A stretch of DNA of 64,000 bases from Escherichia phage AV109: sequence record OR352939.1; one strand, 5' to 3'. Positions 2,004 to 49,184 of the stretch are shown here, piece after piece; within the stretch, counting starts at the first letter, position 1, and each line of letters starts with the position of its first letter. Below the pieces are notes generated by a model. That model was not told the origin of the DNA. It worked only from the letters and a program-made list of their open reading frames with translations, and did no database searches. The position numbers and the translations under genes are program-made.

Positions 2004-2903
2004 TTATTCCTCGATTACGACATCTTCATATTTAGGTATATTATATGGTGAAGAAATTAAAGCATTAAAGTAGATGAACTCACCAAGACCTGGATGAAAT
2101 ACTTCTTCAGGATTTTCGAAATATTGAATCTTCGGACGTCCTTTAAGAATTTGATAGTACTCAGTTTTAGTTGGTTTAAAAATTCGAATCAACGCTTCTT
2201 CAGGATACTTATTTCTGTCAAAGCTATTATTTGGATCGGTTATATAAAGCGGTTGACCTAATTGAATTGCGCATTCAACAACTTGTTCAAAACGATAGCA
2301 TGGGTCACTAATTCGAAATGGATGAAAAATACCATCTAGATGAATAGGAGCCAAATCACCTACAAGACGCTGCATGATGGAAGGACGTATAACTTTCTGC
2401 GTTACGATAATCTTATTACCATCTGCACCTGCGTTAACCAGCACTTCTTTTTGACGTTCATTCAACACAGTTGTTTGGATTGAACGATTAACCGACAATA
2501 TGTCGGTTTTTAAGAATTCGTCAATATAAAAACGTGGTTTATTAGGGTCTGCGGTGATATTGAAATTGAATTCTACATCAAAAGCGCCGTCATATCCAGT
2601 GATATCTGTGATTAGAAAATCACAATCATAATAAGCAATTAATGAATCAACCACAAATTCATTTTCAGACCAGAAATATTTACGAGTGTTATACGCGTTA
2701 TCTTTATACCATAATGGAACAAACTTAAATTCTGGAAAAAGACGTTCGCATTCTTTAATATCAGATGCATTACGTGGATATGTAATCACATCACCCGGAT
2801 TAGCACGGTGCAAATGAAGTTGGAAGTTGCCATCCTTAAGGATAGCATACTGTCCAGTTTCATAAGACCGCATACTCAAGATAGGTACGCGGAAAATAGC
2901 CAT
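2004..2903 (-). CDS. hypothetical protein occupying the position of T4 beta-glucosyltransferase
   Basis: 299 aa ORF; start overlaps gene 42 stop by 1 nt (TAATG); no motif I can assign. Confidence 0.55.
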   Translation of the reverse strand: MAIFRVPILSMRSYETGQYAILKDGNFQLHLHRANPGDVITYPRNASDIKECERLFPEFKFVPLWYKDNAYNTRKYFWSENEFVVDSLIAYYDCDFLITDITGYDGAFDVEFNFNITADPNKPRFYIDEFLKTDILSVNRSIQTTVLNERQKEVLVNAGADGNKIIVTQKVIRPSIMQRLVGDLAPIHLDGIFHPFRISDPCYRFEQVVECAIQLGQPLYITDPNNSFDRNKYPEEALIRIFKPTKTEYYQILKGRPKIQYFENPEEVFHPGLGEFIYFNALISSPYNIPKYEDVVIEE

Positions 2904-3661: not shown

Positions 3662-3901
3662 TTATTTGAATTTCTTGGCAATGTTGATATAACGTAAAGC
3701 TTCAGTATCAATACTTCCAAGAACACTATGAAGAAATGCATCAGCGTAGTATTCCAATTGAACAGGTTCTTTAATCACTTTAGCCGCTTTGGTTTCAAAC
3801 AGGCCCATCAGGGCCTTTTTAAGAATTTGTTCGTTAGTGTTCAGTTTAATAGTCAAAATCTCTTCGTTAAGTTTATAATTAAAAGTTTTTCTAGAAATCA
3901 T
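3662..3901 (-). CDS. hypothetical protein (79 aa)
   Basis: ORF; start overlaps stop of upstream 389-aa ORF (ATGA). Confidence 0.5.
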   Translation of the reverse strand: MISRKTFNYKLNEEILTIKLNTNEQILKKALMGLFETKAAKVIKEPVQLEYYADAFLHSVLGSIDTEALRYINIAKKFK

Positions 3902-5067
3902 TCCGGGTACCTCAAAGCGTCATCAGAGTTAGTTATATCAATAATAGATATAGAGTTTTCTGCTAACCCGTTTTTAGATAATTGACGTTTATAATATCTT
4001 TCACAATATGTACACGTCGTCCCGCAGATTTCATTAGCACAATCGAAATCTGGATGTCTGAACCACCTTTTTTCTAAAAAGCCATCTAACAAAGAGGTTT
4101 CAATATTTACTGTATGTGAAAACTCAGTTTCGTTTTCAAGAGTGAAAATGGTCTCTAAAGGCTTCCACAGTTCTAACAAATTACCTTCAAACTTTTCAGA
4201 AGCGTATGCTTCAAGAACTTTCAAAATGTAGTCTGTGCTACCTGTACGTCCTGAAACTTTGAATTGAGTGATACCAATATCATTATAAAGTTTCAAATCT
4301 TGAGGACGAACAAAACGAGTTCTCAACCAGTTAAATGGGTCTGTATCACGAGCTTTAATACAGTGCTGCATAGGATATCCGTTTAAGGATTTAGCATCAT
4401 CAGCTGTAACATCAGTACTATGGAAAATATAGCAAGAGTCACGATAGCTACAATGTGTTGTATACCCTTTACCAGCATTAGAACAGAACTCATTTACAAG
4501 AACTTCAAATATTATATTGTTCTTATTGCAAAACTCTGCTGCACGCTTCAGGAAAGAAACTGAACGGTTCTTATGAATTCCGCAGCAGACCTTTTTGATA
4601 TTATACTGGTCATGCAAGTATTTGATTTGAGTTACAGCATCGACATGTAGAATTGTTGAAACTTCAATCTCAATGTCTTTATTGACTTCACGAACAATTT
4701 CCATAACAACAGGGTTAGCGATAGTAATACGCCATACGCCTATTGACCAAAGATACTGAACATAATCCTGAATAGCTTTCTTCTTCCACTCAACTAGTTC
4801 TCTTTTTGAACCAGGATTTATCGTGTTGAGTGTATAGTTAAAGCAAATACCTAATTCGTTACAACGTTTAACGTAGTCTTCTAACATCTTTTTGTCAACG
4901 TCAGGAAGCCTAAAATCAGGTCTGGCTGCTACAAAAGCCATTTCTCTTGTAGAGCCATATACTTCGTTTATCAAGCTATTAGGATAGGTTTTATTGAGCT
5001 CTACGATTTTATCAAGAAGAGCTAAATCAAAATTCGTTCCGATTTTAAAAGTATTCATTTTTTGCAT
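3898..5067 (-). CDS. hypothetical Cys-rich protein; candidate transferase or Fe-S enzyme of the sugar-modification module
   Basis: 389 aa; EVLVNEFCSNAGKGYTTHCSYRDSC and C-terminal CANEICGTTCTYC cysteine clusters; loosely reminiscent of U32-family signature but not a strict match. Confidence 0.55.
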   Translation of the reverse strand: MQKMNTFKIGTNFDLALLDKIVELNKTYPNSLINEVYGSTREMAFVAARPDFRLPDVDKKMLEDYVKRCNELGICFNYTLNTINPGSKRELVEWKKKAIQDYVQYLWSIGVWRITIANPVVMEIVREVNKDIEIEVSTILHVDAVTQIKYLHDQYNIKKVCCGIHKNRSVSFLKRAAEFCNKNNIIFEVLVNEFCSNAGKGYTTHCSYRDSCYIFHSTDVTADDAKSLNGYPMQHCIKARDTDPFNWLRTRFVRPQDLKLYNDIGITQFKVSGRTGSTDYILKVLEAYASEKFEGNLLELWKPLETIFTLENETEFSHTVNIETSLLDGFLEKRWFRHPDFDCANEICGTTCTYCERYYKRQLSKNGLAENSISIIDITNSDDALRYPE

Positions 5068-5113
5068 CTCGCGTTAATTGATGCGATGGTTTTTGCAGGT
5101 CTTACTTAAATTA

Positions 5114-5500
5114 TTATAGATTCGGTTTATACGATTTAAATGTTTCGAATTCGCCTTTATTCATAAGAGCTTTGAATTCGTCAGGACGCATAGCTTTGTC
5201 GTCGATAATCCAATCATATACTGGTTTATGTGTTAGCAAATTATGGTACTTCAAGCCAATGTTTGCCAAGTTCTGAATCAGACTTGGGAGAATGTCAATT
5301 GCTATACGACCAGGACCTACTGACTTCATACCGCGAGCAGTGTAAAGCGTTATGGTATGCCCTGCATCATACAGGGCATTAATGGCAGACACCATTTCGA
5401 CGTCTGGTTTGAAGTTCACGTAATCACGATTGTTATTCCACTCTGTTATACAATCATCGACATCAAAACAAAGATTAAGCATGTTTTCTACACGGTGCAT
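5114..5500 (-). CDS. HAD-like phosphatase (putative sugar-phosphate phosphatase)
   Basis: Motifs FDVDDCIT, TLYTARG, conserved K, WIIDDKA consistent with HAD motifs I-IV; probable start at the ATG overlapping upstream stop (TAATG); track ORF extends to 5515. Confidence 0.5.
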   Translation of the reverse strand: MHRVENMLNLCFDVDDCITEWNNNRDYVNFKPDVEMVSAINALYDAGHTITLYTARGMKSVGPGRIAIDILPSLIQNLANIGLKYHNLLTHKPVYDWIIDDKAMRPDEFKALMNKGEFETFKSYKPNL

Positions 5501-7185
5501 TAGATTCGTTCCCATTGATGAGTGATATCGCCACCGATTGGACGATAGGAAACACCAGTTTCTTTATCAGTTAGTACCCATTTACCAGGATTTTTTGTAA
5601 TCAGAGTAGCCGTTACAGGTTCTGCTACGTCATAACTAATAGAGCCGTCCTGAAGTACACGGCCCATGTTACGTAATTGCTTAGTCAGAAGTTCCATACC
5701 TTTATAATATGCGGCTACCGCTTTAAGTGGATTATTCTTGAAATAACCACCTAATGCAATCCAGATAATTGCCACAGCCAAATGATGATATTCATTAAAC
5801 GAACTCAGCTTTCCATATTTGTAAACTAATGGATTGATGTTAATAGTCACATTACAAGTTGTTTCATCAATAGTAAACTGTCCCCAGGTCGGATTAGCAT
5901 TGAATTCATCATAACCTGAAACAGCATAAAGCACTTTAGCTTCATCATACAATTTTGGCCCGTAAATCTTGGTTTCACCAAAATATCCACGAGGGTCGAT
6001 AAATTTGACTTCGCCGTTATCAGTAATCATAGTATTACTGAAGTTCGGGTCACCATGAATAACAGAGTACTGTCCCTGAGAACGGTTATGATAACGAATA
6101 AGGTGTTCTAAAGCTTGTTTCAGCATTGGCTTCAGACGTCCAATCTTAGTGTAGTTCACATGTGTGATTTTACCAAATGAATCAATCAACGGTTGAATGC
6201 TTTCACAACGATCAATAACTTTCGTATAGAATTCTTTAGTGAAATCACGACGAACAGTTTCAGGACTTACAAAATAAGTGTCTGTGCTGAATTTCAGTGC
6301 ATCTAAAATTGCATCAACAATTTGTGGACGAGCAAGACTTGATTTGGATTTAATATATTCAAATGCCGGCTTACCTTTAATGCGTTCCATTTCAAAGTTA
6401 TTTTCATTAACAGAAACTAACTGAGGAACTGAATCTGATTTCACTTTAAGATACCATGAAATCTCATCTTTCTGAAGAGCTCGACCTTGTTCAGTTAATG
6501 CGAATTTAGTTACAGTTTCTTCACCAATTTCAACTGCATTAAAACTACGATTAAGTTCACGAACTTCATGAGCCTTTTCAAGTTTAGGCATATCACCAAG
6601 GTCGATGATATTCATAAGCTCTGATTTATTGAATGCGCCGCTGTAAAGGAATTCTACGAAATCACGTCCTTTGCAGTATTCATGAATTTCCTCATCGGTA
6701 GAACCCATGTAGAATTCCCAGTCTTTGAACTGGTAAATTCCCACAACATTACCACCTGTTGAACCTACGTTAGTGATATTTTCACCATCGAAATTATATC
6801 GACATTCGTCACCCTTAACATAGATTGCGTTAACATTCCAAGACCATGAACCAAAATCAGGAATAATATCACACCAGTTAACAATTACGTTATGGCCGTC
6901 TAAATCTTTGTGTAATTTAGCAAGAGCATAAGCAGAACCATACGCTTCATCGACTGTACGAATAGTCACATTGAACCCTTCTTGCTCACAATAAGCTCGA
7001 ACAGTTTCAGCAAATTTTGAATGAACTACTACAATAATTTCATCTGCGCCAAGGTCAGAATAAATTGTATACAAATTGCTCAGAATAGTGTCTTGTTTAT
7101 AGTTAACAAGCACCTTAGGAATATGGTGAGTAATTGGATATAAACGAGTTGCCAATCCAGCACCAAGAATAACAGCTTTTTTCAT
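5500..7185 (-). CDS. bifunctional sugar-1-phosphate nucleotidyltransferase (N-terminal) / sugar kinase (C-terminal, APH/choline-kinase fold)
   Basis: 561 aa; N-terminal ILGAGLATRL nucleotidyltransferase glycine loop; C-terminal HGDPNFSNTMI...FIDPRGYFG kinase catalytic loop; SD GAGGA upstream. Confidence 0.8.
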   Translation of the reverse strand: MKKAVILGAGLATRLYPITHHIPKVLVNYKQDTILSNLYTIYSDLGADEIIVVVHSKFAETVRAYCEQEGFNVTIRTVDEAYGSAYALAKLHKDLDGHNVIVNWCDIIPDFGSWSWNVNAIYVKGDECRYNFDGENITNVGSTGGNVVGIYQFKDWEFYMGSTDEEIHEYCKGRDFVEFLYSGAFNKSELMNIIDLGDMPKLEKAHEVRELNRSFNAVEIGEETVTKFALTEQGRALQKDEISWYLKVKSDSVPQLVSVNENNFEMERIKGKPAFEYIKSKSSLARPQIVDAILDALKFSTDTYFVSPETVRRDFTKEFYTKVIDRCESIQPLIDSFGKITHVNYTKIGRLKPMLKQALEHLIRYHNRSQGQYSVIHGDPNFSNTMITDNGEVKFIDPRGYFGETKIYGPKLYDEAKVLYAVSGYDEFNANPTWGQFTIDETTCNVTININPLVYKYGKLSSFNEYHHLAVAIIWIALGGYFKNNPLKAVAAYYKGMELLTKQLRNMGRVLQDGSISYDVAEPVTATLITKNPGKWVLTDKETGVSYRPIGGDITHQWERI

Positions 7186-7226
7186 GTTGTGGTCCTCATT
7201 GGTAAGTAGGAGTATTGTACACTATT

Positions 7227-7370
7227 CTAGTTAAAGCATTCATACTTTGCTTGTAGTCCAATCATAATCCATCCAATTACAAGTGTTGGAATCATTACCG
7301 GAGCCGTTAAGCTCCAGTAGATAGTCATGACAAGCATCAATAGTAAAAGTCCTATTGTTATTGCTTTCAT
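7227..7370 (-). CDS. small hydrophobic membrane protein (47 aa), not in ORF track
   Basis: MKAITIGLLLLMLVMTIYWSLTAPVMIPTLVIGWIMIGLQAKYECFN; ATGA overlap with SIS gene stop; SD GAGG 8 nt upstream. Confidence 0.45.
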   Translation of the reverse strand: MKAITIGLLLLMLVMTIYWSLTAPVMIPTLVIGWIMIGLQAKYECFN

Positions 7371-8002
7371 TGTTCGCCTCGTAACATGGCACCTAGTGCA
7401 CCGCCTGGATGGAACTTAAGGAAATCATTAGAGGTAAATCCACGTTCAGACGAAAGGTTGATAGCAAACGTATCGATAAGCGCTAACAACAATGTAGTGG
7501 ACATTGTCGGAGCTAAAGAGTTCTCGTCAACTTCTACCGCGATACCAGTACAGAACGTATAATCAAAAAGAGCTTCGTATTCTTGTGGAATGTCAGGGTT
7601 ACAATGTAACAGAATCTGTTTAACCTGAGGACGAATCATACGAAGATGTTTAGCAACACCTATCATTTCTTCAGTCTTACCAGAACGACTAATATGAATC
7701 AACACGTCATTAGGTGCAATAAATCCTGCGTCACCATGAGAATAATGCCCAGTGTTCAAATACATGCTAGGAATACCTAGTGAAGCAAATGTCTCGGAAG
7801 CTTTAGTTGCGATATTAGCATTCTTACCAACACCTGTAATAATTACCCGGCTTTCATAATTACTAAGTCCAGGGCGTCGAAGAGTTTCTAGAATAGCATT
7901 ATAACGAGCAGGGTTTTGACTAATTACTTTGGCCATAGCGGCCAAAGAAGAAGCTTGTTTTATGATTGCGTCAATAGCGATAGTAATAGGAGTAGTTTTC
8001 AT
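7367..8002 (-). CDS. SIS-domain sugar-phosphate isomerase, arabinose-5-phosphate isomerase (KdsD/KpsF) type without CBS domains
   Basis: 211 aa; GVGKNANIATK, SRSGKTEE, LAPTMSTT and HPGGALG motifs characteristic of API SIS domains. Confidence 0.8.
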   Translation of the reverse strand: MKTTPITIAIDAIIKQASSLAAMAKVISQNPARYNAILETLRRPGLSNYESRVIITGVGKNANIATKASETFASLGIPSMYLNTGHYSHGDAGFIAPNDVLIHISRSGKTEEMIGVAKHLRMIRPQVKQILLHCNPDIPQEYEALFDYTFCTGIAVEVDENSLAPTMSTTLLLALIDTFAINLSSERGFTSNDFLKFHPGGALGAMLRGEQ

Positions 8003-8042
8003 ATTTCTCTCATTTAATTAGTTTACCGTCCATGGCATTATA

Positions 8043-10754
8043 TCAAAAATCGAACATATCGAACAGAGATGCTTTCTTCTCGTAATCGAGTTTCGCTGCT
8101 GATGTGAATCCTTCAAGTGGTTTAATAAATGTCTTCTCAAGGAGAACAGTGTAGTCCATCCAATGAAGTACGTCGTCTTTAATTAAATCTGTGATTTCAG
8201 TACCAGAAGGCCATGCGATACATTTATCACCGAATGGGTTTCCTTCACGTAAAGGCAGAACATATACTTTTTCACCTTCTACAACTTGTGGTGCATCAAT
8301 ATTACCTTTGATAGCTCGGTTATATGTCAGAATTCCACGAATATGAAACGGGCATTTAGGACCAGGGAATCCACCGACATCATATTTAGCAATGTTATTC
8401 GCAGAAGATACCGACGCGATGCTAATATAATTCAATTGACGGAATTCTTTTTCAAACTCTTTAAAATATTCTTGTAATGATTCTTCACCTTCTTGAAGCA
8501 TACGACGAATACATTCTTTAAGAGCTTTCTGTACTGCTTTAGGAGTCGAAGATTTCTGAGTCTCTAGACCCATGATTTTGAGTTTAGGCTCAGCATAACG
8601 AGTGCCTTCCATATCCCACACGTTTAATGCATAACGTTTCTTACCAGTCCAGAATCCACCAATACCTTTAGAACCGAGCGGAGGGCCAGCAATAGCTTCT
8701 CGGTCCATGAACATTAAGTGTTGTTTATTGTTCATGTATTCACACATTTCACGGAAACCTCTATCAATAGCTGGTTCCATACGTTCACGTGCAAACTTAT
8801 CTAAGAAGTCTACCCAATGGTTTGTATCACGGAATTTAGATTCACCAACCTTATCGATAATTTTATCAGCAGATACGTAAATAGAGTCTGTATCACCATA
8901 AAGAACGAAAGCTTCACCTTCTGTACCACAAACTTCATTCAGATATTCATTAACTTTACGTTCAATCCACTGTAAAGCCATTTGACCAAATGTTGTGATT
9001 GCAGTTGCATTACGCAAATCATAATAACGGAACCAAACGTTTCCAAGTGCACCATAAAGTGAGTTGATAAGCAATTTACGGTTAATTTGGGCAGTCATAC
9101 CCGCAACTTCAGTACGTTGAGCTCTAAACAACATTTCATTAAGAGATTTAGCAGACAACTTTTTAATCTTTTCTTTAATCTCATCGCTGAAGTCGAAACG
9201 ATAATCAACATCTAATGGTTCGTCAACAGAAAGATTAGGATTATGCAATGCCTCTTTAATTATTTCACCATTACGTTGAGCTGCAAGCATGTAACCTTTA
9301 TGTTCTTTACGTTGATTAAAGACCTTAGTGATTTCAGTTGGAACTACACCATCACGGTCTTTATAATACATCATGCCGTTAGGAGAACAACTGTACACAT
9401 CTGAAGGACGTTCAGCGATTGCGTTAATATAATCATGTAATGGAGCTACTTTAAACGTTCCTGCTATTGTTTCTGGGCTAATATTCACTTGGCGAATGAT
9501 GCTTGGATACAGAGATGTAAGGTCGAAACTCATTACATATTTGTATCGATTTGGAATAGGTTCCTTAACAAAAGCGCCAGGATAAGGTTGAACCGGGTGA
9601 GAACGACCTTGTGGAATCACCTTGTTCTGCTCTTTAAGGCTATTAAAAATAATAGCATCCCAAGTTTTAATTGGACTGAACACAGATTGAATCTGAATTT
9701 TAGCATAATAACCCATGTCCAAGCTCAAGTTGATGAACTGACGCTTAGAATCAATTTGCAATACACGATACACGTCGATAATGTTATAAGAAATATATCG
9801 TTGGTGATTGCTTTCACGAAGCTTAGAAATAGGGCCGTCATATTTCAGTTTACCAACGTTCAATTCAAATTCTGAAATGTAATCCAGAGAATACGACGGT
9901 TGATTGGTAAAAGAGAATTTTTTGTAAAGGTCAATGTAATCAAGAACAGAGATACCGAACAATGTAATGATTTCACGAGAACCATACATGTTTTCGATAA
10001 CTTTAACACGAGTTTTACGATGTGGCGATAAACGTTTCGCAGTAGATTCGCCAAAAATATTCTTGATTCGGTTATACACATATGGAATATCAAATGACTC
10101 AACGTTCCATCCAGTCAAAATGACAGGAGTTTTCTGTTGCCAGAAGTTGAGATATTCCATCAACAATTCTTTTTCGTTATCGAACGGCATATAAATGATT
10201 TTATCGATAATTTCAGATGGAACTTCATCACCGCCTTGTTCTTGAAGCTTAGCAGCGATTTCAATAGACCATTCTTCTACATTACCATACGGAGAATTCA
10301 ATAGATCAAATACGTAGAACCTGTCGTCAATTGAGTCATAATGGGTGATAGCATCAATAGGATGCTTTGCTTGTGCCGGCTCAGGGAACCCGTCCGGAGA
10401 TGTTACTTCGATGTCGAAGTTAGCCACACGAATTTTTGTATGGTCGTATTTGATTTCATAGTTATAAGTGTCAGACAAATACGCCAATTTGAAATCGTCC
10501 ATGCCAAGTGCTTCAAGTCCGATATCTTCCATGCGTTTAATCCATTGGGAGGCATCACGCATATTAGCGAACAACTTACGAGTACACGGCTTACCGTAGA
10601 TATCGAAATATTTCGTAGCCTGACTTTCCGGACAATGAGCAAACAGTGATGGTTTATATTCTACTTCACGAGTACGTTCACGGCCATTAGAATCGATGTA
10701 ACGTTCAAAAATTGAATCACCAATCTGTTCAACCGTTAAGTAAAATTCTTTCAT
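8043..10754 (-). CDS. 43: DNA polymerase (family B), RB69-type gp43
   Basis: 903 aa; sequence from MKEFYLTVEQIGDSIFERYIDSNGRERTREVEYKPSLFAHCPESQATKYFDIYGKPCTRKLF onward matches the RB69 polymerase as I recall it. Confidence 0.98.
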   Translation of the reverse strand: MKEFYLTVEQIGDSIFERYIDSNGRERTREVEYKPSLFAHCPESQATKYFDIYGKPCTRKLFANMRDASQWIKRMEDIGLEALGMDDFKLAYLSDTYNYEIKYDHTKIRVANFDIEVTSPDGFPEPAQAKHPIDAITHYDSIDDRFYVFDLLNSPYGNVEEWSIEIAAKLQEQGGDEVPSEIIDKIIYMPFDNEKELLMEYLNFWQQKTPVILTGWNVESFDIPYVYNRIKNIFGESTAKRLSPHRKTRVKVIENMYGSREIITLFGISVLDYIDLYKKFSFTNQPSYSLDYISEFELNVGKLKYDGPISKLRESNHQRYISYNIIDVYRVLQIDSKRQFINLSLDMGYYAKIQIQSVFSPIKTWDAIIFNSLKEQNKVIPQGRSHPVQPYPGAFVKEPIPNRYKYVMSFDLTSLYPSIIRQVNISPETIAGTFKVAPLHDYINAIAERPSDVYSCSPNGMMYYKDRDGVVPTEITKVFNQRKEHKGYMLAAQRNGEIIKEALHNPNLSVDEPLDVDYRFDFSDEIKEKIKKLSAKSLNEMLFRAQRTEVAGMTAQINRKLLINSLYGALGNVWFRYYDLRNATAITTFGQMALQWIERKVNEYLNEVCGTEGEAFVLYGDTDSIYVSADKIIDKVGESKFRDTNHWVDFLDKFARERMEPAIDRGFREMCEYMNNKQHLMFMDREAIAGPPLGSKGIGGFWTGKKRYALNVWDMEGTRYAEPKLKIMGLETQKSSTPKAVQKALKECIRRMLQEGEESLQEYFKEFEKEFRQLNYISIASVSSANNIAKYDVGGFPGPKCPFHIRGILTYNRAIKGNIDAPQVVEGEKVYVLPLREGNPFGDKCIAWPSGTEITDLIKDDVLHWMDYTVLLEKTFIKPLEGFTSAAKLDYEKKASLFDMFDF

Positions 10755-10812: not shown

Positions 10813-10832
10813 AATGGGACCGAAGTCCCATT
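10813..10832 (-). promoter_or_regulatory. UUCG-tetraloop hairpin in regA-43 intercistronic region (candidate translational operator or RNA stability element)
   Basis: aatgggac-cgaa-gtcccatt perfect 8-bp inverted repeat, 3 nt after regA stop and about 58 nt upstream of gene 43 ATG. Confidence 0.4.
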
Positions 10833-10835
10833 GCT

Positions 10836-11213
10836 TTAATTACCAATTGTATATTTTGCTTTCAAAGTCCAGTCATCTTTCTGTTTAAAAGAGATAACAC
10901 GGAAGTTATTAGTAAGGCCAAATAGATCTTCACGAGCAGAGTCTTCAATAACAATCAAGCCCCAGTCTTCAAGCAACTGAGCAATCGAATCACGTCGTTG
11001 GTAGTCTTCACCATCAATATCAACCTGACGTCCGTCCATACGCAGCATTTCTTTAAAGTGGACGATGTAGTATTTACCTTGCTTTTGGAGGATATGACAA
11101 GACTGATAAAGAACTTTATCCTTGTTATTAGCGATGCCCATACGGGTCAGAGTCTCTTTGACTTTCAGAAAATCTTCAGGGTTCTTCAATTTAATTTCAA
11201 TCATTTTTACCAT
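10836..11213 (-). CDS. regA: RegA translational repressor
   Basis: 125 aa; [41 protein letters not shown] resembles T4 RegA; overlaps gene 62 end. Confidence 0.9.
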
Positions 11214-13496: not shown

Positions 13497-14392
13497 TTAG
13501 GTTTCCTATTAGCATAATAATTTGTCCAAGACCGGATAGCACCTTGGTATGATTCATCATTAAAACCATGCTGAATTGCATGTTTTCTAAATGTAATATA
13601 ACTTGGTTTTCCTAAAGCAATCCACAATTCCTTTAATTTTTGTTCATGAAATATCCATGTACCTCTAGCTTTAGATTTTCTGAATTTATCCTTAAATTCT
13701 TTGGTTGCATTTCTTTTCGAAGCTGCGATAGAGGCCTTTGCTCTATTTTCAGGTTTAGACCAATACAATGTTTTAGATATTTTTATTTTATCTTTAACAT
13801 TAGGAGAATTCATTATATCTTTAAATTTTAAAGCAAAATCTCTATCGCTAAACATTTTTTTAGAAAGAATAGAAACTTTCTCTCTTCGTTCTTTGGTCCA
13901 ATATGTTTTTTGAAATTCTCTAATTGCGTTTAAATGATTCTCCGACAATTTGCAATTTTTTCTAACACCGACGTAATCTTCGTTTATTTCGTTTTTAGAA
14001 AGTTTTACTATTTTGCCTGTTTTTAAATTTTTATACGGTGCATATCCTTTAGCTGATATTCTAGACTTCTCGTTAGCATAAGCCTTATTAAAATATTTTT
14101 CATTTGAAACGGCTTTAACATTGAGTTGGAATAGTCTTTCTATTCTTCTAGGGTCTAATGTGGTTTCGCCTAAAATTTTTACAGAATATTCGCCTTGGTC
14201 TATTAATCTGGTATATAAAGGAGAATACGAGGAATTAACACTACCGGTATATATTTTACCGGTAGAATCTTCAATAATATCCTTTCCATTAAAATGACAC
14301 GAAACTTTAGAACCTATATAATAACACGGGTATTCATTTTTAATCTCACGATTATAAAAGGTTATAAGATATATTAAATTCATAATTATCAA
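13493..14392 (-). CDS. GIY-YIG-like seg-type homing endonuclease inserted between rpbA and 45
   Basis: 299 aa; N-terminal LIYLITFY...CYYIGSK GIY-YIG-like motif; basic C-terminal region; paralogous to ORFs at 18245 and 25374. Confidence 0.55.
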   Translation of the reverse strand: MIIMNLIYLITFYNREIKNEYPCYYIGSKVSCHFNGKDIIEDSTGKIYTGSVNSSYSPLYTRLIDQGEYSVKILGETTLDPRRIERLFQLNVKAVSNEKYFNKAYANEKSRISAKGYAPYKNLKTGKIVKLSKNEINEDYVGVRKNCKLSENHLNAIREFQKTYWTKERREKVSILSKKMFSDRDFALKFKDIMNSPNVKDKIKISKTLYWSKPENRAKASIAASKRNATKEFKDKFRKSKARGTWIFHEQKLKELWIALGKPSYITFRKHAIQHGFNDESYQGAIRSWTNYYANRKPK

Positions 14393-15060: not shown

Positions 15061-16749
15061 TTATGAAACAGTCATTACCGTAAATCGTCCAACTTTGCTC
15101 ATTTGAAGATGTTGTCCATAAGCTTGTGGGTCATGGTCTCTGTGACTAATTATAAACACGTTTGCATCGGTTAGAGAGTTAAGAATTGTTGAAATAGCTT
15201 TAATACCTTCAGAATCAGTCGCGGAATCCATGACTTCGTCCATAATTAATGTATTGATTCTAACACCAGAGACCTTTTCAGCAATATCTCGCCATGTAAA
15301 CAACAACGCGATATCGATACGTGCTTTTTCACCTTGACTAAATGAAGCATAACTGAACTCTTCACGACCACGTGATTTTATAGATTCATTGAATTCTTCG
15401 TCAATAGAAAACACGTAATCAGCTTCCATGATTTTAAGATAATGGTTAATCTGCTTGTTGAACAGAGGCACATATTTTTTAATGATAGCACCTTTAATAC
15501 CAGAATCTTTTAACATATCTGTGATAATACCACGATGGTATTTTTCAAGAACGATATCCGATTTTGTTTTAATGATTTTATCAAGTTCTTTTTGAAGCAA
15601 AGCTATCTCATCGGCATGGTCGATAAATTCCGCTGAGGCTTGTTCTATTGCAGCTTTAACTTTCTTAGCTTTATCAATAGTGGCAATCATTGCTTGTTTC
15701 TTGGTACGAATATCAGATGCAAGGTCCTGTTTAGTCTTAACATTAGCTCTATATTCGTCCACTAGGACACTCAGATTATCTCTGTGGCAGGTAAGTTGCT
15801 CGAATGAGTGATTACATTCATGAAGCTTATCGGTAATCTTAGAGACAATAGGATCACCCTGGTGCAACTGTGATGCGCAAGTAGGACATGTACCGCCATC
15901 ATGATACATCTTAATAACTTTGTTGTATGAGTCAATTTTAGATTTAATCAAGAATGCTTCTTGTCCTATCTTGTTGAATGCCTCAGTAGGGTCTTCATCA
16001 AGAACGATATTAAGTAGTCGCTCATTAGCTTCTTCGATTTCTGCTTTTAATGAACGAGCTTCTTTAGCTAGGTCGTCATACATATTCTGTAGACGCGCTA
16101 CATTATCACCAGATAATTTCTTTTGACGTTCGATATTCTCGTTATAAATCTTAATTTGTTGGATAACACCATCTTTCTTGGCATCGAGAACTTGTCCCTG
16201 GGAATTAAGTTCTCGAACTTGAGACTTATTGATTTTATCCATTTCAGCGAGTGTGCCGACTTCTAAAAGGTCTTCGACAAGTTTTCTACGAGCAGGGGTG
16301 CTAAGAGCCATGAAAGGGGTATACCCTGCCGTCCCAAGCACAACGATCTGTTTAAAAGACGCGTATGACATTCCGATGCTACGTTCAAATTCTTCTTGGA
16401 AGTCACGACTGCTGGCAGATTCATCAAGACGAACACCGTCAACGGAGATTTCGAAAATATTGGGCTTTTGGCCACGTTTAATGAAGTATTTTTTATCATC
16501 GAATTCCATCCAAAGCTCAACTAAGAGCTCTTTCTTGTTCGTGCTATTAATGATTTGTCCTTTCTTAACATCACGAAATGGTTTACCGAAAAGTCCGAAA
16601 GTAATGGCTTCTAACATCGTAGATTTACCACCGCCATTTTTACCAGTGATTAATGTCTTTTGAACTTTATCTAATTGGATATCAATAGGATTCCCACCTA
16701 CCGACATGATGTTTTGATAACGAACACGATTTAATTTAAATGATTTCAT
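15061..16749 (-). CDS. 46: recombination nuclease subunit gp46 (Rad50/SbcC-like ATPase)
   Basis: 562 aa; Walker A GKNGGGKST, coiled-coil middle, CPTC zinc hook, Walker B LIMDEV; matches T4 gp46. Confidence 0.95.
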   Translation of the reverse strand: MKSFKLNRVRYQNIMSVGGNPIDIQLDKVQKTLITGKNGGGKSTMLEAITFGLFGKPFRDVKKGQIINSTNKKELLVELWMEFDDKKYFIKRGQKPNIFEISVDGVRLDESASSRDFQEEFERSIGMSYASFKQIVVLGTAGYTPFMALSTPARRKLVEDLLEVGTLAEMDKINKSQVRELNSQGQVLDAKKDGVIQQIKIYNENIERQKKLSGDNVARLQNMYDDLAKEARSLKAEIEEANERLLNIVLDEDPTEAFNKIGQEAFLIKSKIDSYNKVIKMYHDGGTCPTCASQLHQGDPIVSKITDKLHECNHSFEQLTCHRDNLSVLVDEYRANVKTKQDLASDIRTKKQAMIATIDKAKKVKAAIEQASAEFIDHADEIALLQKELDKIIKTKSDIVLEKYHRGIITDMLKDSGIKGAIIKKYVPLFNKQINHYLKIMEADYVFSIDEEFNESIKSRGREEFSYASFSQGEKARIDIALLFTWRDIAEKVSGVRINTLIMDEVMDSATDSEGIKAISTILNSLTDANVFIISHRDHDPQAYGQHLQMSKVGRFTVMTVS

Positions 16750-26195: not shown

Positions 26196-26665
26196 TTTAA
26201 ACTCTTTCTAAGCTGCTTTTTGAATGAAGCTATTAATTGTGTTTTAGTATCAGATTCAGTATATTCAAATCCTCTTTGAAGCATCTCAGCCATCATTTCC
26301 TCTTTACCTAGTCTTGAGAACTCTTTAGTTTTGTCTGGAACAAAATTAGGATGGATATTATTATCAGAATAATCTTGTTTCAAATAAGCAAGAAGAGCTT
26401 CAAGCCATTCTAAGTAGTCAACGTTTTGACCTTTCAAACCGGAACGGTTGAACTTATGCTTCATTTGACCTTCTGCTGCGTTGCACAGATTACAGAGTAA
26501 TCCACGAACTCTACCGGCTTTTGGCCCGTTTAATTCATGGTCGTGGTCAAGATGGTTACCTTGAACATCAGGGTCTAATTCACGGTGGCAAATAGGACAC
26601 TTACCATTCTGTGCATCATAAAATTTTTGTTTTTCTTCTTTATATTTTGCGCCTGATAATAACAT
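26192..26665 (-). CDS. 49: endonuclease VII (Holliday junction resolvase)
   Basis: 157 aa; KFYDAQNGKCPICHRELDPDVQGNHLDHDHELNGPKAGRVRGLLCNLCNAAEGQMKHKFNRSGLKG matches T4 gp49. Confidence 0.96.
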   Translation of the reverse strand: MLLSGAKYKEEKQKFYDAQNGKCPICHRELDPDVQGNHLDHDHELNGPKAGRVRGLLCNLCNAAEGQMKHKFNRSGLKGQNVDYLEWLEALLAYLKQDYSDNNIHPNFVPDKTKEFSRLGKEEMMAEMLQRGFEYTESDTKTQLIASFKKQLRKSLK

Positions 26666-37493: not shown

Positions 37494-37984
37494 TTAGGTT
37501 CCCAATCAACAATCACAATTTCTAGTTTAGTGGAATACGTATCTAAAATCTCTTCGATGACATCCCAGTTTCCACCACCAATACCTGCACCAATTCTTGG
37601 CATATAAATTACAGGCTTTGTTATCTTATTCTTTCCGAATTCATTTAATTCTATTATACAATTCATTAAAGCAGAGTACTCAAAATTAGGTCCCGGCTCA
37701 AACTGTGTATAAAGATTAAAGCAATAAGCTTTATGGGTCTTAAAATATTTTTCATAAACCGAATAAGTCCCGAGTTTAGACTTGTCTCCGAATTCGGTTT
37801 GAAGTTTATCGGCTTCCAGAATTTTTGGATAAGCCTTTGCTAATTGTCCTGCCACACCAGCGCCCATTGTATGAAAACAATTACACCCGTGAGCAATATT
37901 ATTACCTTTAGAAAACAGGGCGACAATATCGCCCTTGATATAGTTTTTAATCACTTGCTGCAAGTCCTCTAGTATAAGAGTCAA
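37490..37984 (-). CDS. macro-domain protein (ADP-ribose binding/processing)
   Basis: 164 aa; GNNIAHGCNCFHTMGAGVAGQLAKAYP and GAGIGGGNW motifs typical of macro domains. Confidence 0.7.
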   Translation of the reverse strand: MTLILEDLQQVIKNYIKGDIVALFSKGNNIAHGCNCFHTMGAGVAGQLAKAYPKILEADKLQTEFGDKSKLGTYSVYEKYFKTHKAYCFNLYTQFEPGPNFEYSALMNCIIELNEFGKNKITKPVIYMPRIGAGIGGGNWDVIEEILDTYSTKLEIVIVDWEPK

Positions 37985-49088: not shown

Positions 49089-49184
49089 TAAATAACTTTC
49101 TATTATGAAAGGCACTTGAGGGAGCACCTTTGGTAATAGAGGGTAGATTAATAATAACACATAATTCTTAAAGCAAATTACGTT

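Follow-up and report, generated by a model that had tools for sequence, protein, structure and literature searches.

The stretch of DNA analysed here (the window) comprises 64,000 nucleotides of Escherichia phage AV109 (OR352939.1). Its positions 6800-8100 are 100% identical to the Escherichia phages AV114 and AV115 and share 95-99% identity with about 150 other Mosigvirus (RB69-like T-even) genomes; a window position w corresponds to position w + 95974 of AV114 (OR352944.1). The genes flanking the small open reading frame (ORF) described below all lie on the minus strand, and are transcribed in the order gp43, SIS isomerase, small ORF, NTP-transferase/kinase, HAD phosphatase, U32-like protein, gene 42 homolog and uvsX (Table 1). 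This locus is the published RB69 arabinosylated-cytosine gene cluster, which consists of gp55, gp52:53, gp51, gp50 and gp48 (PMC6024577, PMC13326640). A role in UDP-arabinose synthesis has been proposed for the SIS isomerase, and a role in the arabinose pathway has been published for the NTP-transferase/kinase, the homolog of RB69 gp52:53 (PMC6024577, PMC13326640).

Table 1. Genes and signals around the small ORF, in window coordinates.
Feature	Position	Strand	Basis or remark
DNA polymerase gp43	10754..8043	-	First in transcription order
SIS-domain arabinose-5-phosphate isomerase, 211 aa, RB69 gp55 homolog	8002..7367	-	Pfam SIS, PHROG 5670
Shine-Dalgarno-like GAGG	7377..7380	-	6 nt before the ATG, within the 3' end of the isomerase gene
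ATGA start/stop overlap, translational-coupling site	7367..7370	-	Sequence read directly; conserved in relatives
Small ORF, 47 aa, T4 42.1 / Y02C ortholog	7370..7227	-	ORF, PHROG 3610
MotA-type middle promoter candidate	7214..7238	-	Pattern match, consensus, RB69 prediction
Bifunctional NTP-transferase/kinase, 561 aa, RB69 gp52:53 homolog	7185..5500	-	Pfam NTP_transferase, PHROG 4098
HAD-type phosphatase	5515..5114	-	
U32-like protein	5067..3898	-	
Thymidylate-synthase-like gene 42 homolog, then uvsX	Beyond the U32-like gene	-	

The original prediction had described a 47-residue ORF with an ATGA overlap, a GAGG Shine-Dalgarno (SD) sequence and a strongly hydrophobic product, and we found all of these on the minus strand. 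The ATG of the small ORF (7370..7368) overlaps the TGA of the isomerase gene (7369..7367) by 4 nt to give ATGA. The product, MKAITIGLLLLMLVMTIYWSLTAPVMIPTLVIGWIMIGLQAKYECFN, has a GRAVY of 1.36, and its hydrophobicity is unbroken over residues 3-39, with a dip at residues 18-28. That the ORF is unannotated, as was also claimed, holds only for the ORF track from which the claim was made, since the GenBank record of AV114 annotates the gene (WPK35054.1). There is a further entry for it in APCEc01 (YP_009225212.1), and the exact 47-aa sequence is present on 137 public contigs.

A catalogued gene family of T-even phages

The product matched PHROG 3610 ('unknown function') at E 6.8e-27, with residues 1-47 aligned to profile positions 1-47 of 47. 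When 5.8 billion proteins were searched, the homologs recovered (E 1e-16 to 1e-22) all carried the precomputed Pfam assignment PF26865 (Phage_T4_Y02C). Scans of the 47-aa protein with local copies of Pfam and NCBIfam gave no match, the local Pfam copy being one without the PF26865 model. Residues conserved in the family, Y18, P24, M26, P28, T29, W34, Q40, K42, C45 and N47, are all found in the window protein. The conserved positions, which also include I27, show no variation or at least 90% conservation among 24 cluster representatives; position 45 is Tyr instead of Cys in one T4-like variant.

Using tblastn, we found that an ORF of T4 matches the window at E 8e-14, with 52% identity over 46 residues. 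This T4 counterpart is an intact ORF of 49 codons, MKSKIIAALLLILMIIISIYYSVTVPLMIPTIILGWSLLLLQVKYECIN, on the minus strand of NC_000866 (26227..26376). It is flanked by imm and gene 42, and the stop codon of imm and the start codon of the ORF share the sequence ATGA. The T4 RefSeq record leaves it unannotated; in UniRef and Swiss-Prot the T4 sequence is entered as Y02C (Y02C_BPT4), 'Uncharacterized 5.6 kDa protein in Gp42-imm intergenic region', and the RB33 and VR7 records label the gene 42.1. The T4 and window genes are alike in length (49 and 47 aa), in a shared core, (I/V)Y(W/Y)...P.MIPT...(G/A)W....Q.KY.C.N, in the ATGA coupling to the preceding gene and in their place between gene 43 and the gene 42/uvsX region. 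They differ in the upstream gene, which is imm in T4 and the arabinose-5-phosphate isomerase gene in the window. They also differ downstream: only 7 nt, without a promoter, separate the T4 ORF from gene 42, whereas in the window the NTP-transferase/kinase gene follows after 41 nt and is preceded by a candidate MotA-type promoter. Judged by its sequence, the small ORF is the Mosigvirus ortholog of T-even gene 42.1 and is a catalogued gene, not a new one.

The RB69 counterpart is RB69ORF054c (NP_861744.1), described in its record as 'similar to T4 42-imm intercistronic region'. Just 36 aa are annotated there, counted from an internal ATG, but the identical 47-aa frame, with its ATGA coupling, is present in the DNA of RB69, so that gene and frame are the same as in the window and the annotation alone is shorter. 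Because the ATGA-coupled start is conserved across genera, the comparison supports the 47-aa form over the annotated 36 aa. With the gap in the T4 RefSeq record and the truncation in RB69, proteomic and knockout studies of T4 and RB69 that use those records may overlook the gene.

The family is narrow: all phages in which it was found are of the T-even type (Tevenvirinae), and nearly all infect enterobacteria. A tblastn search with the 47-aa protein returned 771 phage records, all T-even-type and nearly all enterobacterial, and an exhaustive HMMER profile search of 1.84 billion representative proteins, run without a word filter, returned three real clusters. One further hit of the profile search, a repetitive 481-aa protein (P0025), proved spurious on inspection. 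Literature searches on gp42.1, ORF054c, Y02C, PF26865 and phrog_3610 found no paper that mentions the gene, and a search on T4 ribosome profiling of small proteins gave nothing on it. The 42.1 family is one of the conserved T-even small membrane proteins without an assigned role.

Two genomic contexts and a candidate middle promoter

We examined the locus in 12 annotated phages (AV114, APCEc01, T4, RB33, VR7, SP18, Bp7, TG1, phiR1-RT, PEi26, MY742 and X20) from at least eight genera, and in 24 additional loci, 22 of them from IMG/VR together with PM2 and one JGI contig. An intact ORF of 45-50 codons with an ATGA start was present in 12/12 and 24/24, respectively. The gene was always located just downstream of gene 43 and ahead of the gene 42/uvsX region, and the same synteny, on the same strand, is seen in the window. 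Two kinds of upstream gene were found. In Tequatrovirus (T4, RB33), Gaprivervirus (VR7, SP18), Dhakavirus (Bp7) and 14 of the 24 additional loci it is imm. In Mosigvirus, Tegunavirus (TG1, phiR1-RT), Kanagawavirus (PEi26), Winklervirus (X20), MY742 and the other 10 additional loci it is the isomerase gene, to which the ORF of PM2 is also coupled. The ATGA overlap is kept in all 36 loci, whether imm or the isomerase gene is upstream. The SD-like motif varies among these relatives (GAAGGA in T4; GGTG in PEi26 and X20), so the overlap and not the SD sequence is the conserved signal.

On one metagenomic contig (L017) the order is 43 - imm - Y02C - 165 aa - SIS - 86 aa - NTP-transferase, and the ORF thus adjoins imm although an isomerase gene lies 0.5 kb downstream. 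The gene that follows the ORF in VR7, SP18 and Bp7 codes for a product with an N-terminal lipoprotein signal sequence resembling the one of T4 imm.1. In the annotation of the AV114 region, 4-nt overlaps occur at 3 of 15 junctions between neighbours; since such overlaps are common between unrelated neighbours, coupling alone is no proof of partnership.

Scanning of positions 6900-8200 for sigma-70 promoters and terminators gave hits at chance level, with no convincing terminator or sigma-70 promoter, and the 43-imm-42 region of T4 is prereplicative. On these two grounds, the small ORF would be translated from prereplicative transcripts that read through from gene 43. Ribosomes terminating on the upstream gene would re-initiate at the ATGA of the small ORF.

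The candidate middle promoter overlaps the end of the ORF. It consists of AATGCTTTA, a 12-nt spacer holding the TAG stop codon, and the -10 element TACAAT (7219..7214); its MotA box, TGCTTTA (7238..7232), overlaps the codons for Cys45-Phe46-Asn47 (TGC-TTT-AAC). The published middle-promoter consensus is (a/t)(a/t)(a/t)TGCTTtA, 12+/-1 bp from TAtaaT (PMC2988021). The candidate, which is predicted only, matches T4 MotA/AsiA middle promoters in box, spacing and -10 element, and differs from them in that its MotA box is inside the coding sequence of the small ORF. We found 11 matches to the pattern TGCTTYA-N11-13-TANNNT in the window against 1.9 expected, a number reached by none of 100 shuffles, and 10 of the 11 were on the transcribed minus strand. 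Furthermore, motA is annotated in AV114, and the same promoter site was predicted in RB69 in 2006 as Pm:29842.

The distribution of the motif follows the upstream gene. It was detected in 9 of the 10 isomerase-coupled additional loci and in AV114, APCEc01, TG1, PEi26 and MY742; X20 and phiR1-RT have sequences that nearly match it. In the motif-bearing isomerase-coupled phages the Cys codon is TGC and an intergenic region of 39-42 nt comes after the ORF. No imm-coupled locus has the motif; the Cys codon there is nearly always TGT, and the ORF is followed within about 10 nt by the start of the next gene. Since the same amino acids are kept with different codons where the promoter is absent, the C-terminus is conserved as protein sequence, and the promoter seems to have been fitted onto it. 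The predicted promoter would drive the downstream NTP-transferase/kinase (UDP-arabinose) genes, which would place a promoter for UDP-arabinose genes within an older backbone gene.

Coding status and alternative identities

The DNA is A+T-rich and holds 78 ORFs of at least 25 aa within 7 kb, so a 47-codon ORF by itself is not above chance. The original prediction had named absence from close relatives among the things that would speak against a gene, and every relative that we examined had the ORF intact. In a set of 12 distinct 47-codon sequences, the variable columns at codon positions 1, 2 and 3 numbered 28, 17 and 43 of 47, and in the two other frames 9% of codons were stops. Cross-genus dN/dS (Nei-Gojobori) was 0.06-0.24, with synonymous sites near saturation: 0.06 for VR7-SP18, 0.09 for PEi26-MY742, 0.11 for PEi26-X20 and 0.24 for VR7-PEi26. 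Synonymous sites were near saturation in pairs more distant than these, and the sole pair at 0.5 was T4-RB33, a very close pair with 12 differences. The open frame in 36/36 loci, the codon-position bias and the dN/dS values together indicate, on comparative grounds, that the small ORF is a real protein-coding gene under purifying selection.

An untranslated ORF, conserved by a DNA-level constraint such as the embedded middle promoter or an intercistronic spacer, is favoured by the overlap of the MotA box with the last codons in isomerase-coupled phages. It would also agree with the missing annotation in the T4 RefSeq record and with the frequency of small ORFs that arise by chance. This explanation is exceedingly improbable. 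Such a constraint does not account for a frame that stays open in every locus against 9% stop codons in the other frames, for third-position variation that far exceeds second-position variation, or for the low dN/dS. The C-terminal residues are moreover retained, with other codons, in imm-coupled phages that lack the promoter (T4: TGT ATC AAT), and the ATGA start is invariant. The reading of the ORF as an artefact was rejected on the 36/36 open frames, the codon-position bias, dN/dS and the invariant ATGA.

Its identity as a gene was a separate matter. The original prediction pointed out that T4 imm, the superinfection-immunity gene, lies between genes 43 and 42, which we confirmed, and suggested that the small ORF might be a diverged imm. 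Position favours this idea, as does the fact that both products are small and hydrophobic, but AV114 has a true imm of its own. This gene (AV114 92599..92847, 82 aa) is 63% identical to T4 Imm (E 3e-32) and has imm.1 and sp as its neighbours on either side; it lies to the left of the window, roughly 3 kb from where the window begins; no Imm homolog was found within the window. The small protein showed no significant similarity to Imm: BLASTP against AV114 Imm aligned only 17 hydrophobic residues (E 0.02 in a single comparison), and a Pfam scan gave no match to PF14373 (Imm_superinfect). Furthermore, imm and the ORF are adjacent yet separate in T4, RB33, VR7, SP18 and Bp7, and on the L017 contig the two carry different Pfam families. 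T4 Imm, a membrane protein, resembles 42.1 in being a small hydrophobic prereplicative product, and the two genes are adjacent and co-translated in Tequatro-, Gapriver- and Dhakavirus; Imm differs in its length of 82-83 aa and its charged C-terminal tail, and has no sequence relationship to 42.1. Its family is also much more widespread, with Imm in 1040 phage records, including 138 Klebsiella phages, as against 42.1 matches in at most a few Klebsiella phages. That the ORF is a highly diverged imm is hardly credible, and by homology it corresponds to the next gene after imm in T4. The ORF is genuine, but it is already annotated and belongs to existing Pfam and PHROG families, and its identification with imm is wrong.

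The neighbouring genes invite another explanation, namely that the ORF encodes a dedicated component of UDP-arabinose synthesis or DNA arabinosylation, for instance one that anchors the isomerase and the NTP-transferase/kinase to the membrane or assists their assembly; a membrane-tethering protein had been among the possibilities first proposed. The ORF does lie between pathway genes, and is coupled to them, in Mosig-, Teguna-, Kanagawa- and Winklervirus, MY742 and PM2. However, glucosylating T4-type phages have the ortholog too, there preceded by imm and followed by gene 42, and in T4, RB33, VR7 and SP18 the locus shows no isomerase gene. Conversely, two arabinosylating phages of Acinetobacter, DLP3 and Acj9, lack the ORF, and we found no small ORF on that strand in their isomerase-NTP-transferase gaps (67 and 60 nt); the DNA of DLP3 has been shown experimentally to be arabinosylated (PMC13326640). 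Across phages, the presence of the ORF did not track that of the arabinose gene set. The published steps of the pathway are assigned to gp55, gp52:53 and gp51, and these schemes, with the HY126 AfhE and AfhF activities, explain UDP-arabinose synthesis without the ORF (PMC13326640). Neither 'gp54' nor 'RB69p054' appears anywhere in that paper, and the arabinosylation papers skip gp54 (PMC6024577, PMC13326640). The pathway enzymes are all predicted to be soluble. A dedicated arabinose component is therefore an unlikely identity, and the coupling to imm in T4, RB33, VR7, SP18, Bp7 and 14 additional loci, as well as the two Acinetobacter phages, leaves tethering of the isomerase unsupported. The presence of the ORF without the pathway (T4) and of the pathway without the ORF (DLP3) argues that the small ORF would belong to the backbone of the 43-42 region, with the arabinose genes placed around it, and would be neither an enzyme nor a tether of the pathway.

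The explanation that we favour as a whole, with a probability of roughly 0.8, is that the small ORF is the 42.1 ortholog, a backbone gene outside the arabinose pathway that would encode a translationally coupled small membrane-hairpin protein.

Predicted membrane topology and possible role of the 42.1 product

An AF2 model built from a 24-sequence family alignment contained helices at residues 2-22 and 24-45 (mean pLDDT 89, pTM 0.61). These helices, the hydropathy profile and two invariant prolines where the helices break (Pro24 and Pro28) suggest that the product is an inner-membrane helical hairpin with its turn at these prolines, and the 47-aa product would accordingly be expected to insert into the host inner membrane in this form. 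By the positive-inside rule, Lys2 and Lys42 are probably cytoplasmic. Two full membrane spans would normally call for longer hydrophobic arms than these, which have about 19 and 15 residues, and the protein may instead form a single span followed by an interfacial helix. A sequence profile search of the PDB gave no match. When the AF2 model was compared using Foldseek, the only PDB hit was an insignificant one to an Escherichia coli ATP synthase chain (E 8.8), and BFVD yielded only the Bp7 ortholog.

We tentatively place the hairpin protein among small membrane effectors that act in the envelope or superinfection-exclusion sphere with Imm and Imm.1. This possible role is suggested by co-translation with imm in three genera and by the position of the ORF between imm and the imm.1-like lipoprotein gene, and we also counted for it the L017 contig, where the ORF has stayed with imm despite the nearby isomerase gene. 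It does not look like an obligatory subunit of Imm, because Mosigviruses have imm, imm.1 and sp together at another locus without the 42.1 ORF, because Imm is widespread where the ORF is absent, and because 4-nt overlaps are common. The strict ATGA coupling and the imm/imm.1 neighbourhood in three genera provide a testable lead for work on superinfection exclusion.

The protein might equally be a stand-alone membrane effector with a host inner-membrane target unrelated to Imm, for example a transporter, a sensor, a protease or a membrane-bound defence system. Other small hydrophobic early proteins of T4 and the small membrane regulators of bacteria offer an analogy. The persistence of the ORF apart from imm in Mosigvirus speaks for such an effector, as do the conserved polar or special residues (Y18, P24, P28-T29, W34, Q40, K42, C45 and N47) and a distribution almost entirely among enterobacterial phages. 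Against it, searches of PDB, Foldseek and NCBIfam gave no structural or sequence analog, and no target can be named. It differs from a role beside Imm only in the process that is assumed, and the present data do not separate the two; we regard an Imm-independent host target and a role in the Imm sphere as about equally likely, each of them only a possibility.

A more specific proposal, which we consider doubtful, is that 42.1 is an unrecognised membrane component of the T-even apparatus for superinfection exclusion or control of DNA entry. T4-type phages would then produce the protein and Imm at a constant ratio, and phages whose imm has moved elsewhere would have kept it as an effector in its own right. 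If this were so, the classical 'imm' phenotype would rest on more than one membrane protein.

Predicted middle promoter at the 3' end of the small ORF

The final three codons of the small ORF, together with its stop, share DNA with a predicted MotA-type middle promoter, which is directed towards the NTP-transferase/kinase gene. Its RB69 counterpart has already been predicted, as Pm:29842 (Nolan 2006 supplement). We found that lineages in which the small ORF is coupled to the isomerase gene have the promoter match and TGC as the Cys codon; imm-coupled lineages have no match to the MotA-type promoter and their Cys codon is almost always TGT. Cys45 is replaced by Tyr in one T4-like IMG/VR contig (L042 2501-2590, ...QVKYEYIN) and is otherwise invariant. 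Across the whole window, the MotA-box/-10 pattern gave 11 matches, including the one at the end of the small ORF, compared with 1.9 expected, and some of these matches are intragenic.

In phages TG1, PEi26, MY742, X20 and phiR1-RT (loci L007, L008, L012, L014 and L015), the -10 element TACAAT lies within a palindrome, GGTACAATGG(A/C)(T/G)GTACC, in the 20 nt directly 3' of the stop of the small ORF, whereas AV114 and RB69 have only AGTGTACAATAC. The palindrome might serve as a binding site for a protein, or fold into an RNA hairpin in read-through transcripts.

Predicted promoter, pattern matches and the relocated imm cluster
Feature	Location	Strand	Detail
MotA-type middle promoter, predicted	window 7214-7238	-	AATGCTTTA - 12 nt - TACAAT
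MotA-box/-10 match	window 2040-2064	-	
MotA-box/-10 match	window 5908-5933	-	
MotA-box/-10 match	window 7764-7787	-	
MotA-box/-10 match	window 13595-13619	-	
MotA-box/-10 match	window 13812-13835	-	
MotA-box/-10 match	window 15575-15599	-	
MotA-box/-10 match	window 26258-26283	-	
MotA-box/-10 match	window 37648-37673	-	
MotA-box/-10 match	window 49151-49175	-	
MotA-box/-10 match	window 10832-10857	+	
imm.1/imm/sp cluster	AV114 OR352944 92242..93277 (L010 42242-43277)	-	~3 kb left of window start

The imm and arabinose neighbourhoods

In T4, imm.1 and imm lie between genes 43 and 42, whereas in the Mosigvirus AV114 they form a single cluster with spackle (sp) near genes 41 and 61. The 42.1 homolog did not relocate with these three genes. 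Both alternative upstream partners, imm and SIS, occur on one JGI contig (L017, 3300076574 Ga0565125_000004, region 3726-7359), in the order 43 - imm - Y02C - 165 aa - SIS - 86 aa - NTP-transferase, with the small ORF coupled to imm.

The gap between the isomerase and NTP-transferase genes is merely 67 nt in DLP3 (L019 3588-3656) and 60 nt in Acj9 (L020 3591-3652), both Acinetobacter phages, and the arabinose module therefore occurs without a 42.1-like ORF. The modification cluster that holds the small ORF also holds a second one of 53 aa (window 3740-3901, minus strand), which shares 4 nt with the end of the U32-like gene, is annotated in AV114 (WPK35050.1) and has RB69ORF049c as its counterpart.

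Annotation in other phages

The T4 ortholog is intact, encoding 49 aa in the imm/gene 42 interval (NC_000866.4 26227..26376, minus strand; L006 3728-3877). It has a UniRef/Swiss-Prot entry as a 5.6 kDa protein but is not annotated in the RefSeq record, and work based on the RefSeq gene list would miss it. At NC_004928 29823..29966 (minus strand; L018 5324-5467), RB69 DNA has the identical 47-aa ORF, including the ATGA-coupled start kept across all genera; the RB69ORF054c annotation starts at an internal ATG and covers 36 aa. In the Enterobacter phage MY742, an annotated 630-aa CDS (L012 2979-4871, plus strand) begins within the isomerase gene and crosses the small ORF in a different frame; most probably the NTP-transferase gene was given a wrong start in this CDS, which hides the small ORF.
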